Shown here piece by piece: positions 4,447-12,770 of a DNA stretch of 64,000 nt. The DNA comes from a virus: IMG/VR virus record IMGVR_UViG_3300017763_000003. One strand, 5' to 3'. Each line of letters opens with the position of its first letter. Within the stretch, counting starts at the first letter, position 1. The notes under the pieces were generated by a model. It saw only the letters and a program-made list of their open reading frames with translations, made no database searches and was not told where the DNA came from. Both the position numbers and the translations under genes were made by a program.

Positions 4447-4516
4447 TTTTTAATAACTTTTTAATCTAAAAAAATAGACGATTTTACTTGACATTTGTCT
4501 AAAAATGGAGTAGAAT
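4436..4516 (+). promoter_or_regulatory. Sigma70-type early promoter with upstream IHF-consensus site
   Basis: TAAGTAATTGATT 4436-4448; TTGACA 4488-4493, 17 bp, TAGAAT 4511-4516. Confidence 0.85.
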
Positions 4517-4522
4517 TACTGT

Positions 4523-5047
4523 ATGATTAAAGATAATAAAATAATATATGTCGATATGGATGGTGTATTAGCCAACTTTGACGACTATTACTTCAGAAAT
4601 GGAAGGCACTCTTTTATATATGAAGAGTTCCGTGATGAAGTTATGCAGAATAAACTATTTACCAAACTTCCTAGAATGGTAAACATGGATGAATTGATGG
4701 ATTCTACTAGACAGATTGCTGAAAAGCATGGTTATGAAATCCAAATTTTATCTAGTGTTCATACATTATATGATGACCAGTTTGCTGAAAGTTGCAAACA
4801 AAAAAGGTTATGGTTGTTAGAAAATGGTTTGGGTGACTTGGTCACTAATTTCGTGAAAGGTAGAACTGAAAAAGGAACTTTCGGTAAAGATGGTGACATC
4901 TTAATTGATGACCAACTTACTTGTGTTCATTACTTTAACGATAATGGTGGTGTTGGTATCGGTCATAAAAATGTACTTGATACTCTCACTTTATTACAAA
5001 AGGTTATCGCCGATAGACATTTACAAGAGGTGGCAGTTGCCAGTTAA
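4523..5047 (+). CDS. HAD-family 5'(3')-deoxyribonucleotidase-like protein
   Basis: IYVDMDGVLANF, ILSS, K, ILIDD motifs. Confidence 0.85.
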   Translation: MIKDNKIIYVDMDGVLANFDDYYFRNGRHSFIYEEFRDEVMQNKLFTKLPRMVNMDELMDSTRQIAEKHGYEIQILSSVHTLYDDQFAESCKQKRLWLLENGLGDLVTNFVKGRTEKGTFGKDGDILIDDQLTCVHYFNDNGGVGIGHKNVLDTLTLLQKVIADRHLQEVAVAS

Positions 5048-5585
5048 AAAGCACGACGGAAATTTGTTTAAAGGCATATTTTCCCCAAGAATAAATCTCG
5101 CTGGTACTTATGCGAAGAATGCTCATATTGGGCAAAAGAGAAAGTACACTGGCGAGCCATACATCACACATCCTACAGCAGTTGCTGAATTATTAAGAAT
5201 TAATTACAAAGATACTACTGAGGATATGTACATGGCAGCATTATTGCATGATGTAGTTGAAGATACACCTGCATCACATGAAGAAATAGCACGATTCTTT
5301 GGCGACAAAGTTAGCGAACTGGTTAGAGGTTTGACTGATGTATCAAAGCCAGAAGATGGGAATCGTGCTACTAGAAAAGCAATGGATCGTGACCATCTTG
5401 CTCAAGGTAGTAAGGAAGTACAAACGATAAAAGTTTTTGACCTTATACATAATACTGAGTCTATAAAAGAACACGATCCTGAATTCTACAAAGTGTTCAA
5501 GTTAGAGAAACAAGATTTACTTAATGTGATGACTAAAGTAGATCCAGAAATTAAACAACTCGGATGGGAGAGTATAACCCCATAG
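5037..5585 (+). CDS. Stand-alone HD domain, SpoT/Mesh1-like (p)ppGpp-hydrolase family
   Basis: AHIGQKRKYTGEPYITHP...AALLHDVVEDT...IKVFDLIHN; TTG start after GAGGT is inferred. Confidence 0.85.
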   Translation: MPVKKHDGNLFKGIFSPRINLAGTYAKNAHIGQKRKYTGEPYITHPTAVAELLRINYKDTTEDMYMAALLHDVVEDTPASHEEIARFFGDKVSELVRGLTDVSKPEDGNRATRKAMDRDHLAQGSKEVQTIKVFDLIHNTESIKEHDPEFYKVFKLEKQDLLNVMTKVDPEIKQLGWESITP

Positions 5586-5591
5586 GATAAA

Positions 5592-6029
5592 ATGAGAGAA
5601 GGAATAACTGCTTTCCTAGTCGGAAGTATAGGATTGTTTTGGATATTGAACTTAGCATACGCCAACGCAGATGTCAAAGGATATACTGATGTTCATGGAT
5701 GCCAAGGTGAGTGTCTTGAAGAATACCATAATAAGTTTGGTACATTTACTGAGCAACTTGAAGCAAAGCGAGTAGCGATGCAATCAGAAACACCAGCTGA
5801 TAGAGGTGCTAAGAAATATGTTAATTGTAATATGTGTCATGGTATGAATGGCGAGGGTGGTATTGGTCCAAAATTATCTGGATCTACATCGATTGTTAAG
5901 ATGCTAGAGCAATATAAAGCTGGGGAAACTAGAGGTGCCCAGTCAGCATTAATGTGGGGACAGGCAGCAAACCTGTCAACTCAGGATATGGAAGACTTAC
6001 AGGCATATATTGATGGATTTGACATTTAA
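5592..6029 (+). CDS. Class I c-type cytochrome (c553/c4-like), exported or membrane-anchored
   Basis: N-terminal signal/TM, CNMCH haem motif, GPKLSG, axial Met in ALMWGQAANLS. Confidence 0.9.
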   Translation: MREGITAFLVGSIGLFWILNLAYANADVKGYTDVHGCQGECLEEYHNKFGTFTEQLEAKRVAMQSETPADRGAKKYVNCNMCHGMNGEGGIGPKLSGSTSIVKMLEQYKAGETRGAQSALMWGQAANLSTQDMEDLQAYIDGFDI

Positions 6030-6047
6030 GTTTTTATTAATTAGAAT
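6019..6047 (+). promoter_or_regulatory. Sigma70-type promoter
   Basis: TTGACA 6019-6024, 17 bp, TAGAAT 6042-6047. Confidence 0.8.
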
Positions 6048-6053
6048 TATAAC

Positions 6054-6215
6054 ATGATTATGACTATATTAGATAGTTTAATAGTTATCGGATTGATTAC
6101 TATTTGTGGTGCTATCGCTTGGGTAGATGTTGAAATGCGTCTAGATAAACGAAAGAAACGCAAAGAAGCTAGAAAACAATTTGAAGAATCTATTGATATA
6201 TCTACAGATGAATAG
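6054..6215 (+). CDS. Small membrane protein (53 aa, not in ORF track)
   Basis: MIMTILDSLIVIGLITICGAIAWVDVEMRLDKRKKRKEAR...; TM followed by a basic tail; directly after the promoter. Confidence 0.65.
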   Translation: MIMTILDSLIVIGLITICGAIAWVDVEMRLDKRKKRKEARKQFEESIDISTDE

Positions 6216-6223
6216 GTGAAACT

Positions 6224-6436
6224 ATGAGTATTGAAGAAATACAAGGATATCTTGTAATACTAACCCCATTGGCTATGGCGATAGTTGCTATGAGCATTTT
6301 TACATTACAAGATAAAAGGATAAAAACTTATAGACTTGGTGAGATCGTAAAAGATAAAAACGCACCACCAAAAAAACAGAAAGGTGTGTTTGATATGCAG
6401 AAAACTGCGTCTTACACGGAAGGAGATAATACATGA
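6224..6436 (+). CDS. Small membrane protein
   Basis: TM helix, SD AGGTG, ATGA overlap with the next gene. Confidence 0.65.
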   Translation: MSIEEIQGYLVILTPLAMAIVAMSIFTLQDKRIKTYRLGEIVKDKNAPPKKQKGVFDMQKTASYTEGDNT

Positions 6437-7005
6437 ATATCTTTGCATTACATCAGCATCCTGTGGTTGCTGCGAAACAACATTGTGACAAACATGTTGT
6501 TAAAATGATACTAGAAACTGCCCAACTACTTTCTACTGCCCATCGTATGCTTGATGGCGAACTAACTAAACGACCATCGGTATCAGGTAAAACAGAAACT
6601 AAGTATTGGCTCATGGAAAATAGTAATATGGAAAATGTACTTTATCGTGCTACCATGATGAACCATCCTTGTGCTATATGGGTACGAGAAACTGATGCTA
6701 ATTATATGTGGGCATACAATTTATTTACTGCACTCTGCGATGAATATACGCATCGCTATGGTAGAGTACACAAAACTGATACACTACTGCGTGAAGCATT
6801 GATGTTTACACCCATAGCTATTAAACGACAGGGTCTAACACCATTTCCTCAAGCGATGCCTGAGGATGTGAAACATAATGATAGCATAGTTGCTTATCGT
6901 CAATACTATATTAAATACAAAGCAGACTTCGCTAAATGGACTAAGAGGGATGTTCCTACATGGTACGATGAAGTACACGGAACAAATGCTTGTTATGCCA
7001 GTTAA
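6433..7005 (+). CDS. Pyrimidine-dimer DNA glycosylase / endonuclease V-like
   Basis: MNIF...HCDKHVVKMILETAQLLSTAH, NHPCAIW, QAMP, AYRQYY, WTKR. Confidence 0.85.
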   Translation: MNIFALHQHPVVAAKQHCDKHVVKMILETAQLLSTAHRMLDGELTKRPSVSGKTETKYWLMENSNMENVLYRATMMNHPCAIWVRETDANYMWAYNLFTALCDEYTHRYGRVHKTDTLLREALMFTPIAIKRQGLTPFPQAMPEDVKHNDSIVAYRQYYIKYKADFAKWTKRDVPTWYDEVHGTNACYAS

Positions 7006-7642
7006 ATTAATATCATACTCGAAAGGACAAAATGGAGATTTATTACAGGAAGTTGCATATTGCGCAAGAGTATCTAATCCATCGAACCAAGCGAATGAAG
7101 AAACTTCTGAAAAGCTACTCAAATATTTGATGAAGCATAAACACTGGTCACCATTTGAAATGGTATCAGTATGTTTAGAAATTAAAACTACAAGAGATAT
7201 CGCTAGACAAATATTGAGACATAGAAGTTTTTCTTTCCAGGAATTTAGTCAAAGATATGCTGAAGCAAATGATTACACTACTCGTAAAGCTAGAGAGCAA
7301 GATAAAAAGAACAGACAAAACTCTACAGAGTTTGAAGATCGTGAGATTGTAGAATGGTTTAATATGCAACAGATGAAACTTATTAGAGGAGTAAAGGAAT
7401 TATATACAGAAGCACTCGGCAAAGGTATAGCCAAAGAACAAGCTAGAGCCATATTGCCTGAGGGTATGACTGAAAGTACCCTATATATGAATGGAACATT
7501 GCGTTCATGGATGCATTATATAGATCTAAGAACTGCAAATGGTACTCAAAAAGAACACATGGATATAGCTAGTGAATGTGCTGATGCTATTGAAGAAGTT
7601 TTTCCTATGATACAGGACTTTAATCATGATGAAGAAAATTAG
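6968..7642 (+). CDS. thyX: Flavin-dependent thymidylate synthase
   Basis: ARVS, HWSPFE, RQILRHRSFSFQEFSQRY, EQARAILP, LRSWMHYIDLR; start may be 6986 or 6995. Confidence 0.95.
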   Translation: MKYTEQMLVMPVKLISYSKGQNGDLLQEVAYCARVSNPSNQANEETSEKLLKYLMKHKHWSPFEMVSVCLEIKTTRDIARQILRHRSFSFQEFSQRYAEANDYTTRKAREQDKKNRQNSTEFEDREIVEWFNMQQMKLIRGVKELYTEALGKGIAKEQARAILPEGMTESTLYMNGTLRSWMHYIDLRTANGTQKEHMDIASECADAIEEVFPMIQDFNHDEEN

Positions 7643-7769
7643 TGAACAAATAGAAATATGTAAATGCCATTGGAAAACTATTTTTGTTGGTAGTTTTATC
7701 ATGCACTTTATGTTTGACTGGCTCATATTTGGATTTGGGGTATTACTAGGGATGCATATAGGACATTAA
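7626..7769 (+). CDS. Small His/Cys-containing membrane peptide (47 aa, not in ORF track)
   Basis: MMKKISEQIEICKCHWKTIFVGSFIMHFMFDWLIFGFGVLLGMHIGH; SD AGGA; fills the thyX-AOX gap. Confidence 0.65.
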   Translation: MMKKISEQIEICKCHWKTIFVGSFIMHFMFDWLIFGFGVLLGMHIGH

Positions 7770-7773
7770 ATGA

Positions 7774-8349
7774 ATGGGGGAAATAATTAAAGATAAGTTT
7801 GCGAAGAGCATGACTATGTTCTTTCGTTTCATAGCCGATACTTTTTTTGCTAAAAGGTATGGGCATCGTGCAGTCGTATTAGAAACTGTTGCTGCAGTTC
7901 CTGGAATGGTTGCTGGTGTTTGGCTACATATGAAATCTCTTCGTAAGATGAAGAGTGGCTTGGGTCCAAAGATTCGCGAGATGATGGATGAAGCTGAGAA
8001 TGAAAGAATGCATCTAATGATTTTTATTGATATCGCAAAACCATCATGGTTAGAACGATACATAGTTTTATTTGCTCAGTTTATTTTTATTATTTTTTAT
8101 TTACTACTATATATTTTCTTTCCTAAAACTGCTCATCGTATGACACATTATTTTGAAGAGGAAGCAGTAAAAAGTTATACACAATATTTACATATGGTAG
8201 AGTCTGGACAAACTGAAAATGTCGATGCACCACAGATAGCGATAGATTATTACAAATTAAAAAAGAGTGCGAAACTAACAGATGTAATTAAAAAGGTAAG
8301 GGCAGATGAAGAAAAACACTCGCAAGTCAATAAAAGATATTCGGAGTAG
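7774..8349 (+). CDS. aox: Alternative oxidase (ubiquinol oxidase, AOX)
   Basis: RYGHRAVVLETVAAVPGMV, EAENERMHL, YFEEEAVKSYT, RADEEKH: diiron ligands and conserved Tyr present. Confidence 0.95.
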   Translation: MGEIIKDKFAKSMTMFFRFIADTFFAKRYGHRAVVLETVAAVPGMVAGVWLHMKSLRKMKSGLGPKIREMMDEAENERMHLMIFIDIAKPSWLERYIVLFAQFIFIIFYLLLYIFFPKTAHRMTHYFEEEAVKSYTQYLHMVESGQTENVDAPQIAIDYYKLKKSAKLTDVIKKVRADEEKHSQVNKRYSE

Positions 8350-8443
8350 AGACCCTGTTGCCAAAGAACTACGCACACCCAAGTATAGAAGTCAGGTTGT
8401 GCCTAATAAAAAGAAACACTTACCACCGATAGAAGAGTTATAA
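8306..8443 (+). CDS. Small basic peptide with weak ArfA-like pattern (45 aa, not in ORF track)
   Basis: MKKNTRKSIKDIRSRDPVAKELRTPKYRSQVVPNKKKHLPPIEEL; SD AAGGG; overlaps the AOX end. Confidence 0.55.
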   Translation: MKKNTRKSIKDIRSRDPVAKELRTPKYRSQVVPNKKKHLPPIEEL

Positions 8444-8446
8444 ATA
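8439..8446 (+). promoter_or_regulatory. T4-type late promoter
   Basis: TATAAATA, 5 nt before ATG 8452. Confidence 0.75.
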
Positions 8447-8451
8447 TAGTA

Positions 8452-9531
8452 ATGAAAATTATAAAGACTACCACACCCAAAGAAGTTCGTGATTTCGATG
8501 GTGAATATCCAAAAAAACTAGAACCAACTGATGTTGTCGAGATATTTCAGACTCCACTGACTGGCTCATATAACTGGGATTATACAGTACAAGATAATCG
8601 CATTCGTAAGTTGTATGAATTAGGCAAGGAGTTAAACTGGAATGTAGAGGTTGATGTTGATTGGTCGCCAGAGTTTGAAGGTATCACTGATGAAGAGTTT
8701 GAGTTTGAAGATAATCAATGGACTGAACATGAAATGTATAAAGGCTGGGATACAAAGAAACGAAAAGCATTTTTACATGACCAAAACGCATGGGCACTTA
8801 GTCAGTTTTTACATGGTGAGCAAGGTGCTTTACTTGTAGCAAGTCAGTTAGCATCCTGTGCTCCAACATTCAACGCAAAGTTGTATGCAGCAAGTCAAAC
8901 CTTTGACGAAGCAAGACATGTAGAAGCATTTAACAAATATTTACAGACAAGAATTAAAACGAGTTGGCCAATAGGAACTGGTCTGAAAACTTTACTAGAT
9001 AAAATACTTACTGACCCAAGATGGGATTTAAAGTTTATCGGAATGCAAGTAATTATTGAAGGACTCGCACTCGCAGCATTTAATGCTTCAAAAGAATCAA
9101 GTCGTGACCCAGTATATAAAGAGATGATTGGATTAATTATTAGAGATGAAGCTAGGCATGTGACTTTTGGTATTAATTATTTACATGAGTTTGTTAAAAC
9201 TTTATCAGAAGAAGAAGTATTAGATCGTGCTAAGTTTGCACTTGAAGCATGTACAGTATCAAGAAATAGATTAAGACCTTTTGAAGTATGGAAAAAATAT
9301 GGATTAGATTTAGTAGCAACTGAAGAATATTCAAAAGAAAATTTATTTCAAACACAGTTTCAAGAAGTATTGTTCAGTAGAATAATGCCTAACCTGAAAA
9401 AAATTGGATTACTTCCTGAAGAAGTTATTCCTGGATATGAAAAACTAGGAGTGCTGAAATACAGTGAAAGTGATAGTGATTATGAATTAGACTGGGATGA
9501 ACTCAGTAAACCTTTAAAGGAAGCAGTATAA
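8452..9531 (+). CDS. Ferritin-like diiron protein (AurF-like oxygenase family)
   Basis: FLHGEQGA, DEARH, IIEGLA, second DEARH; YNWDY N-terminal motif. Confidence 0.8.
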   Translation: MKIIKTTTPKEVRDFDGEYPKKLEPTDVVEIFQTPLTGSYNWDYTVQDNRIRKLYELGKELNWNVEVDVDWSPEFEGITDEEFEFEDNQWTEHEMYKGWDTKKRKAFLHDQNAWALSQFLHGEQGALLVASQLASCAPTFNAKLYAASQTFDEARHVEAFNKYLQTRIKTSWPIGTGLKTLLDKILTDPRWDLKFIGMQVIIEGLALAAFNASKESSRDPVYKEMIGLIIRDEARHVTFGINYLHEFVKTLSEEEVLDRAKFALEACTVSRNRLRPFEVWKKYGLDLVATEEYSKENLFQTQFQEVLFSRIMPNLKKIGLLPEEVIPGYEKLGVLKYSESDSDYELDWDELSKPLKEAV

Positions 9532-12257: not shown

Positions 12258-12770
12258 ATGGAAGGAACTCGTTTAACCGACCAAGTGTTCTATATGCGTG
12301 AAGATAATGATTGGGTTTTGAAAAGAACTCAAGACTTGTTTAATGACAAGGATGTGGTAGTTTTTGGATTGCCTGGAGCATTTACACCTACATGTTCAGC
12401 TTTTCAGTTGCCAAAGTTTGAGGAGTTATATGATAACTTCAAGGACTTGGGTATGGATGAAGTTTATTGTACAGCTGTAAATGATTCTTTCGTAATGAAT
12501 GCGTGGTTTGACCAACAAGGGATTACCAAAGTAAAACCTTTGCCTGATGGCAATGCTGACTTTGCTAGAAGTACAGGTATGCTGAATGACTTTACTAATA
12601 GAGGATTCGGTGAAAGGTCTTGGCGATACAGTATGTATGTTAAGAATGGGGAGATTAAATTACGATATGCCGAGTGGGGATACCCAGAAGCATGTCCAAT
12701 TCAAGATCCTTTTGAAGTATCTGGTGCTGAAAAAATGCTTGAAGCACTTAAACATATAAAGGCAAATTAA
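12258..12770 (+). CDS. Peroxiredoxin (Prx5/redoxin type)
   Basis: LPGAFTPTCS, VNDSFVMNAW, PDGN, GFGERSWRYSM, DPFEVS. Confidence 0.95.
   Translation: MEGTRLTDQVFYMREDNDWVLKRTQDLFNDKDVVVFGLPGAFTPTCSAFQLPKFEELYDNFKDLGMDEVYCTAVNDSFVMNAWFDQQGITKVKPLPDGNADFARSTGMLNDFTNRGFGERSWRYSMYVKNGEIKLRYAEWGYPEACPIQDPFEVSGAEKMLEALKHIKAN

Follow-up and report, generated by a model that had tools for sequence, protein, structure and literature searches.

We examined a 64,000-nucleotide stretch of viral DNA (IMG/VR record IMGVR_UViG_3300017763_000003; the whole stretch is called the window, and all positions are counted along it) and found that it carries two respiratory genes inside a run of phage genes, namely, one encoding a class I cytochrome c (positions 5592 to 6029) and one encoding an alternative oxidase (AOX; positions 7774 to 8349). 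Both are phage-resident auxiliary metabolic genes (AMGs) under purifying selection. On the reading that we favor, to which we give a probability of roughly 60%, their products would act on the aerobic respiratory chain of the host, downstream of the quinol pool.

Identity of the two respiratory proteins

The oxidase matched the Pfam family AOX (PF01786) at 2.2e-68, with 230.6 bits against a cutoff of 22.7, over profile positions 19 to 214 of 216. Its six iron ligands, E37, E77, H80, E128, E179, and H182, lying in the motifs LET, NERMHL, EEEA, and RADExxH, align with E123, E162, H165, E213, E266, and H269 of the trypanosome alternative oxidase (TAO), and its catalytic Y135 aligns with TAO Y220 (sequence alignment, 2.6e-33). 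The ligands and the tyrosine were kept in 117 to 118 of 118 close relatives. When an AlphaFold model of the protein (pLDDT 71) was compared with known structures, all 14 matches at E ≤ 0.001 were TAO chains, with TMq values of 0.81 to 0.84 for the ten chains listed, and the next match was COQ7 with an E value of 0.075. Identity to bacterial AOX proteins was 57 to 74%, whereas the PTOX of cyanophage S-CAM9 aligned in tblastn at 24% identity with an E value of 3, and the PTOX family phrog_4235 reached only 9.5e-4. Judged by these alignments, the window oxidase is of the AOX type and PTOX is excluded. Among isolate phages, the sole real match was an unannotated gene of phage C48C1 (58% identity), the single phage of the isolate collection with an AOX relative. 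That gene (L001:8025-8576, OQ984149.1), labeled "hypothetical protein," directly follows a tRNA-Thr and is flanked by the genes for the sliding clamp and the clamp loader.

The cytochrome matched Pfam Cytochrom_C at 8.4e-7 (30.7 bits against a cutoff of 21.3), with a second match to Cytochrome_CBB3 that stayed under its cutoff (24.8 bits against 27); at the scores of both the cytochrome and the AOX, chance matching is of no concern. It has a single heme site, C79-N-M-C82-H83, and its distal Met121 aligns with the heme methionine of cytochromes c4, c552, and c554 and of 8yts, as found by sequence matches to the PDB. These heme residues were kept in 106 to 108 of 109 relatives. In a model of modest confidence (pLDDT 68), the heme domain was closest to gammaproteobacterial c-type cytochromes, and the structural neighbors included the cytochrome c4 of the Pseudomonas aeruginosa bc1-cbb3 supercomplex; a Foldseek search with this model gave nothing at E ≤ 0.001. 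A tblastn search of isolate phages and a scan of the PHROGs gave no match to the cytochrome. By its sequence features, the protein is a class I monoheme cytochrome resembling c552, c5, or one half of c4.

Its N terminus reads M-R-E, followed by hydrophobic residues 5 to 21 and by A-Y-A|N, and the model shows an N-terminal hydrophobic helix spanning residues 2 to 25. The A-Y-A|N cleavage motif is not conserved in relatives; the segment, which could be an export signal, may therefore be a membrane anchor. Between this segment and the heme domain, the whole family has an invariant C-x-G-E-C motif (C37 and C41 in the window protein). A CuA- or Sco-like metal site was considered for this motif and dropped, because the family alignment shows no conserved histidine past the second cysteine. 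The earlier note, made from the letters alone, had read the two genes as an exported class I cytochrome c and an AOX with every diiron ligand and with motifs of the AOX rather than the PTOX type, and the residues and scores given above bear out this assignment, with the cytochrome having an N terminus of the export or anchor type.

Phage context, integrity, and origin of the locus

The window belongs, as judged from its gene sequences, to a pelagimyophage-like T4-type marine phage, since its gp6 is closest to those of Pelagibacter phage HTVC008M (44% identity), OM43 phage Melnitz (43%), and Pelagibacter phage Mosig (40%), while cyanomyophages are lower (36 to 38%). T4-type baseplate and tail genes encode the tail tube cap, the gp5 hub-lysozyme, and the wedge proteins gp6, gp7, and gp8, with gp5 to gp8 at 27 to 43 kb. 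A megablast search of positions 1 to 25000 against isolate phages gave no match. The cytochrome c and AOX genes lie in a single densely packed run of genes on the + strand, extending from about 4.5 to 12.8 kb, which includes the following features.

4488-4516, +: candidate sigma-70-type early promoter, TTGACA-17-TAGAAT, ahead of the NT5C-like, HD hydrolase, and cytochrome c genes
4523-5047, +: NT5C-like gene (Pfam and PHROG scans)
ending at 5585, +: HD hydrolase gene, directly ahead of cytochrome c
5592-6029, +: cytochrome c, monoheme class I, 145 amino acids (Pfam Cytochrom_C)
6019-6047, +: second sigma-70-type promoter candidate, identical to the first, ahead of the small open reading frames (ORFs), the DenV-like gene, thyX, and AOX
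6054-6215, +: single-pass membrane ORF of 53 amino acids, kept in syntenic relatives; no Pfam or PHROG match
6224-6436, +: single-pass membrane ORF of 70 amino acids with a conserved C-terminal tail, ...Y-T-E-G-D-N-T
6433-7005, +: DenV-like/phrog_624 phage core gene (Pfam Pyr_excise at the cutoff; phrog_624, 8.9e-59)
6890-7642, +: thyX, flavin-dependent thymidylate synthase (Pfam Thy1, 1.5e-43; phrog_85)
7774-8349, +: AOX (diiron ubiquinol oxidase), short bacterial-type form, 191 amino acids (Pfam AOX)
8439-8446, +: TATAAATA box with the T4 late-promoter consensus, 5 nucleotides ahead of the start of the diiron gene
8452-9531, +: AurF-like ferritin-like diiron gene (Pfam AurF below the cutoff)

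The order of genes around AOX recurred in assemblies of 10 to 152 kb made independently of one another (Tara, ENA, JGI, and IMG/VR), and T4-type structural genes were found on the same contigs as the respiratory genes. GC content was steady, at 0.34 to 0.38, over the first 30 kb of the window. When viral and cellular loci were compared at the nucleotide level, they had only AOX in common, in some cases together with a neighboring membrane-protein gene. The idea that some IMG/VR contigs with AOX are mislabeled cellular DNA was therefore rejected. Pairwise ratios of nonsynonymous to synonymous substitution rates (dN/dS) were 0.07 to 0.16 for AOX, 0.10 to 0.18 for thyX, and 0.13 to 0.27 for cytochrome c, with a value of 0.5 for one barely diverged pair of cytochromes. 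That the genes are an assembly chimera, host contamination, or decayed copies is thus extremely improbable in view of the even GC content, the recurring gene order, the conserved residues, the low dN/dS, and the 99% tree split described below. The earlier note had taken the interleaving with phage core genes as an argument against host contamination; the DenV-like/phrog_624 gene and thyX do stand between cytochrome c and AOX, and its concern about a chimera or inactive proteins receded with these comparisons, the ligands being kept in more than 100 relatives.

Two observations concern individual relatives. Compared with L123, the window cytochrome c has a synonymous divergence (dS) of only 0.11, while AOX and thyX are at 0.7 to 1.0 (AOX at 1.0), a sign of mosaicism within the window lineage. 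In a 15.6-kb contig labeled "MAG: Synechococcus sp. CPC35" (L008, NYUU01000108.1), the genes run nrdA-x-nrdB-cytochrome c-...-AOX, and a stretch of 8.3 kb matches the IMG/VR phage contigs L126 and L127 at 96% identity; L008 is probably a phage contig that was misbinned into a Synechococcus genome.

We then looked for the origin of the two genes. Across 185,579 species genomes, the cellular AOX proteins nearest to that of the window were those of SAR86 (66 to 71% identity) and of Porticoccaceae and Limnobacter (approximately 69%), followed at 64 to 66% by OM43/Methylophilaceae and one freshwater member of the Pelagibacteraceae. AOX was present in 70 of 201 sampled Pelagibacterales genomes (a count that includes the unpublished genome G315 and whose point stands without it), and these copies were 56 to 58% identical to the phage AOX. 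A quick maximum-likelihood tree was built from 129 sequences, with a cyanophage protein as its only PTOX and no eukaryotic AOX. In it, a 99% branch set the window AOX and 27 metagenome sequences apart from every cellular sequence, and the members of this clade are metagenome and viral-contig sequences only. The SAR11 clade was nested deep in the alphaproteobacterial AOX, several supported branches away from the phage clade. We used only the unrooted splits of this tree, because the single cyanophage PTOX included is unreliable as a root, sitting on a branch of length 10 that attaches inside the phage clade. The phylogeny that the earlier note had named as a check on the AOX assignment placed the window clade among AOX, with PTOX on that long branch.

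Other viral AOX lineages fell among gammaproteobacterial sequences, and the C48C1 AOX grouped with a different gammaproteobacterial branch, so that phages probably gained AOX several times, the C48C1 gene being probably a separate acquisition. In three viral contigs (L174, L177, and L178), AOX matches the gene of an uncultured Porticoccus (L019) at 89% DNA identity over 598 bp, which suggests that the gene was exchanged recently and that a host link may exist.

A homologue of the cytochrome, of similar size, was found in 16 of 201 SAR86-order genomes, with 43 to 58% identity in the six examined, and full-length homologues bearing CxGEC were found in an uncultured gammaproteobacterium. A profile of the cytochrome family run over the 201 Pelagibacterales genomes returned nothing above 28 bits. 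In one SAR86-order genome, the genes follow one another as polA, one ORF, engB, cytochrome c4, dsbA, and the small cytochrome c, the c4 being diheme; we take this arrangement to be the classical gammaproteobacterial cc4/c5 locus. On these comparisons, both genes look gammaproteobacterial in type. The host is probably a heterotroph, SAR11, SAR86, and OM43 all being candidates. FabF, tried as a host marker, was approximately 35% identical to the proteins of both the SAR86 and the SAR11 orders and did not discriminate, and no tRNAs were found in the window.

Genomes of SAR86 and Porticoccus encode, at a distance of 0.65 to 4.4 kb from AOX, a multipass membrane protein of about 135 residues (motif RYNPL..DPS.Q.YF) that belongs to no Pfam family (L013:4960-5352, L034:1239-1643, L053:7520-7924, and L018:7307-7687). 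In several viral contigs it adjoins AOX or cytochrome c plus AOX (L161:11100-11507, L166:8323-8724, and L189:6393-6839), with at most 81% identity between the viral and SAR86 proteins, and it is missing from the window. Together with AOX, it may form a cassette common to gammaproteobacteria and their phages.

Regarding the other genes of the run, the 53-residue membrane ORF has relatives of 42 to 57% identity in L119 and L123, and the 70-residue one is 40% identical to L141:12909-13139, with relatives near AOX in other phage lineages. The tail of the latter (...FDKQR..Y.(E/D)GDNT) recurs by AOX elsewhere and is sometimes fused to the 135-residue membrane protein (L189:6393-6839). The real start of thyX is probably an internal ATG near 6950, the ThyX proteins of relatives having 215 to 233 residues. 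ThyX and AOX are separated by 130 bp that are missing in relatives whose thyX and AOX overlap, and this spacer contains a hydrophobic micro-ORF of 22 codons at 7701-7769 (MHFMFDWLIFGFGVLLGMHIGH). The window shows no enrichment of HTAAATA boxes as a class. The diiron gene is followed by a phrog_385 gene and then by genes for PhoH, a lysozyme, a PD-(D/E)XK nuclease, and a peroxiredoxin. The peroxiredoxin gene (AhpC-TSA/Redoxin, 12258-12770) lies 4 kb 3' of AOX and is kept in all syntenic relatives; peroxiredoxin is already on the pelagimyophage AMG list (Zaragoza-Solas et al. 2020, PMC7029224).

The product of the AurF-like gene at 8452-9531, which the earlier note had left unnamed, matched Pfam AurF (PF11583) with 26.4 bits, below the cutoff of 29.6, and has two DEARH motifs. 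It also gave weak matches to R2lox and to aldehyde-deformylating oxygenase, and its atlas neighbors were AurF-like clusters at 0.98. Its dN/dS was 0.10 to 0.12. We found no signal peptide in this protein and no tie to respiration, and we treat it, on its sequence matches, as an adjoining accessory oxygenase of the AurF kind, outside the respiratory reading. Covariation of this gene with cytochrome c, hinted at by L002 to L004 versus L005 to L007, was rejected because L123 keeps cytochrome c without the diiron gene.

Gene pairing in viruses and proposed role

IMG/VR held 417 contigs with a relative of AOX and 279 with a relative of the cytochrome, and T4-type gp6 was found on three long AOX-bearing records. 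Within at most 2.5 kb in 84 viral AOX loci, the cytochrome c family was the most frequent neighbor (28 of 84). The earlier note had suggested surveying viral databases for co-occurrence, and this survey revealed 46 viral loci with both genes, which lay within 1.5 kb of each other in 30, abutting or overlapping in either order in 14 and close by in 16 more, although these linkage counts take in many closely related contigs and not independent events. For instance, the cytochrome stop codon overlaps the AOX start in L124, whereas AOX comes first in L148, and the paired arrangements include cytochromes merely 35 to 70% identical to that of the window. No such cytochrome was found near AOX in 90 cellular AOX loci, the lone apparent exception being the phage-like contig L008.

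Among the 80 best cytochrome-centered viral loci, nrdA was near in 50, nrdB in 42, glutaredoxin (Grx) in 18, and AOX in 13. An abundant phage group, whose primase/helicase is T7-like and which also encodes PolA and a Cas4-like nuclease, has the cytochrome between nrdA and nrdB (L226:7365-11286, L098:3109-6423, and many of L203 to L255), whereas the order in a T4-like group is nrdA-nrdB-cytochrome-Grx-...-AOX. The primase/helicase of the former group is 48% identical to that of pelagipodophages and 45% identical to those of Aeromonas and Vibrio phages, which does not fix its host. Its cytochromes are 64 to 77% identical to that of the window and thus nearer to it than the cytochromes of some T4-like lineages are, which shows that phages without close kinship have passed the gene on.

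What the two proteins would do can be proposed from the known biochemistry of their families, from which we infer their location, activity, timing, and benefit. AOX oxidizes quinol without pumping protons, and it needs two iron atoms and neither heme nor copper. The phage AOX would thus sit at the cytoplasmic face of the inner membrane and pass electrons from ubiquinol directly to O2, giving water. The cytochrome c would be exported by the Sec pathway, matured by the Ccm system of the host, and carry electrons through the periplasm from bc1 to a heme-copper oxidase, like its gammaproteobacterial homologues of the c4/c5 type. Both genes would thereby widen the outlet of the quinol pool, so that quinones stay oxidized and electrons continue to flow after host expression is shut off, and NAD- and quinone-dependent dehydrogenases would keep running to provide energy and precursors for phage replication. 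In a heterotroph, AOX and cytochrome c would thus parallel the PTOX and plastocyanin of cyanophages. A respiratory role of the cytochrome is favored by its cellular homologues (43 to 58% identity), which in a SAR86-order genome lie beside diheme cytochrome c4 and dsbA, near engB and polA, and by the cytochrome c4 of the bc1-cbb3 supercomplex among its structural neighbors.

Several observations weigh against this respiratory role or against a joint one, in addition to the nonindependence of the linkage counts. Because AOX and cytochrome c serve alternative branches of the respiratory chain, their pairing does not prove cooperation. The cytochrome is accessory and its link to AOX is not obligatory: it is missing in close relatives that keep AOX (L005 to L007 and G407), one viral record has the two genes 50 kb apart, and it adjoins nrdA and nrdB far more often than AOX (50 and 42 versus 13 of 80 loci). 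The conserved CxGEC cysteine pair fits no explained role. Finally, matches at 11 of 12 positions to the sigma-70-type promoter numbered 4 in the window, against 3.8 expected.

The company that the genes keep raises the question of whether their chief use is nucleotide supply, that is, the regeneration of oxidized quinone mainly for the quinone-dependent dihydroorotate dehydrogenase (DHODH) and other dehydrogenases of the host, leading to pyrimidines and deoxynucleoside triphosphates. In the window the two genes are interleaved with thyX, the NT5C-like gene, the HD hydrolase gene, and PhoH; other lineages have nrdA-nrdB-cytochrome c-Grx-...-AOX or nrdB-...-cytochrome c-AOX-Grx, and the cytochrome separates nrdA from nrdB in the phages with T7-like replication. 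In respiration-deficient eukaryotic cells, moreover, AOX restores DHODH-driven pyrimidine synthesis. The early regions of T4-like marine phages, however, mix nucleotide genes and AMGs in any case, which may reflect shared timing or a permissive insertion site, and as a pure inference we hold nucleotide supply as the chief purpose to be distinctly unlikely. In view of the phage pairing and the placement among ribonucleotide reductase (RNR), glutaredoxin, and thyX genes, it is nevertheless worth testing. A bolder proposal, which we make tentatively and regard as unlikely, is that AOX, the CxGEC cytochrome, and one or two small membrane proteins constitute a respiratory module that is found only in phages, was assembled repeatedly, and regenerates oxidized quinone for nucleotide synthesis. 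Such a job, for example through quinone-dependent DHODH, would account for the place of the genes within an RNR/glutaredoxin/thyX cluster, and the spread of the cytochrome across T4-like phages and phages with T7-like replication would then point to strong selection.

Stress relief is a possible, if still rather unlikely, alternative. AOX would then be a safety valve against reactive oxygen species arising from an over-reduced chain in the infected cell, together with the peroxiredoxin at 12258-12770, and the cytochrome would feed a periplasmic peroxidase or similar detoxifying enzyme in place of the terminal oxidase. The peroxiredoxin gene, 4 kb 3' of AOX and kept in relatives, fits such a role, as does the glutaredoxin gene that abuts AOX or cytochrome c in other lineages, and the sole paper to discuss a phage AOX (PMC12801897) groups it with peroxiredoxin, thioredoxin, and glutaredoxin as alleviating oxidative stress. 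On the other hand, the surroundings of the cytochrome gene, in phages and in cells alike, showed no gene for a cytochrome c peroxidase, and stress relief overlaps with the proposed action downstream of the quinol pool and is inseparable from it by sequence.

We consider it very unlikely that AOX serves as an inhibitor-resistant or low-metal bypass, letting the cell respire when heme-copper oxidases are blocked by NO, sulfide, or cyanide or when iron or copper is scarce, and that the cytochrome c is an AMG with no relation to it, selected on its own account. Such a bypass agrees with the established need of AOX for two iron atoms and for neither heme nor copper, with the presence of AOX without cytochrome c in several phage lineages, and with the relief of NO stress by the AOX of Vibrio fischeri (Dunn 2018, as cited in PMC12801897), but it does not account for the fact that the two genes abut repeatedly in phages. 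Stress relief, nucleotide supply, and bypass are refinements of the respiratory role that sequence data do not separate.

Heterotrophs of the SAR11, SAR86, and OM43 types, a substantial fraction of which is infected at any given moment, do much of the respiration of the ocean. If infection reroutes electrons through an oxidase that pumps no protons, infected cells would burn carbon at a lower energy yield, and estimates of oxygen use and growth efficiency in the surface ocean would change. The phage-only pairing and the cytochrome within RNR operons provide concrete leads that can be tested.

Comparison with known systems

The earlier note had overstated the novelty of the two genes. In Table S5 of Zaragoza-Solas et al. 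2020 (mSystems, PMC7029224), the entries "Cytochrome C - Electron transport" and "Alternative oxidase AOX" appear among the AMGs found only in pelagimyophages, and petE and PtoX among those found only in cyanomyophages. The core finding has therefore been on record since 2020, although unstudied: the main text does not mention the AOX and cytochrome c genes, and the supplementary listing comes without phylogeny, residue analysis, linkage, or function. The pelagimyophages of that study (26 genomes) are of the same kind as the window phage, which is T4-like with HTVC008M, Mosig, and Melnitz as the nearest isolates; the same two respiratory genes are listed for them, and their other AMGs agree as well (fabF, peroxiredoxin, PhoH, and Asp/Asn hydroxylases). 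What we add concerns where the genes came from, how widely marine viruses carry them, and their pairing in phages alone.

The cyanomyovirus S-SCSM2R, in which AOX was annotated as an oxidative-stress gene (BMC Biol 2025, PMC12801897), is likewise a T4-like marine phage with an AOX-type oxidase, compared here by its annotation. Beyond that annotation and the line in Table S5, our search of the literature found nothing linking AOX with phage AMGs. Phage C48C1 (OQ984149) is a further T4-like marine phage with AOX; its protein differs in being 58% identical and in belonging to another gammaproteobacterial branch. Williamson et al. 2012 reported reads of a "viral cbb3-type cytochrome c oxidase" alongside many SAR86 host predictions. 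As the second Pfam match of the window cytochrome is named Cytochrome_CBB3, we may speculate that those reads represent this cytochrome.

Among cellular proteins, the AOX proteins of bacteria (SAR86, Porticoccaceae, Limnobacter, OM43, and SAR11, with those of Vibrio fischeri and Novosphingobium having been studied) resemble the phage protein in identity (57 to 71%), in their ligands, and in their short form, the eukaryotic N-terminal arm being missing in both. They differ in that the window AOX belongs to a clade of metagenome and viral sequences only, and in that cellular AOX genes do not lie beside cytochrome c. TAO (PDB 3VV9) has the same fold (TM 0.82 to 0.84 to the model), the same six iron ligands, and Tyr220, at 38 to 39% identity, while the phage AOX is without its N-terminal extension of approximately 90 residues. 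The phage cytochrome has the CxxCH motif, the distal methionine, the heme-domain fold, and the N-terminal export or anchor segment in common with the gammaproteobacterial monoheme c4/c5/c552/c554 cytochromes, to which it adds an N-terminal region with CxGEC. This motif also occurs in some uncultured gammaproteobacterial homologues (P0233 type) and is missing from the SAR86-order homologues.

A functional counterpart would be the PTOX and petE of cyanophages. In both cases, phage AMGs encode a PF01786 diiron quinol oxidase and a small soluble carrier outside the membrane, which are presumed to provide an extra outlet for an over-reduced quinone pool. The two systems differ in their oxidases, which are 24% identical, the ligand motifs and fold of the phage AOX being of the mitochondrial/bacterial type, in their carriers, with heme in one and copper in the other, and in the chain that they serve, which would be respiratory here and is photosynthetic in cyanophages.

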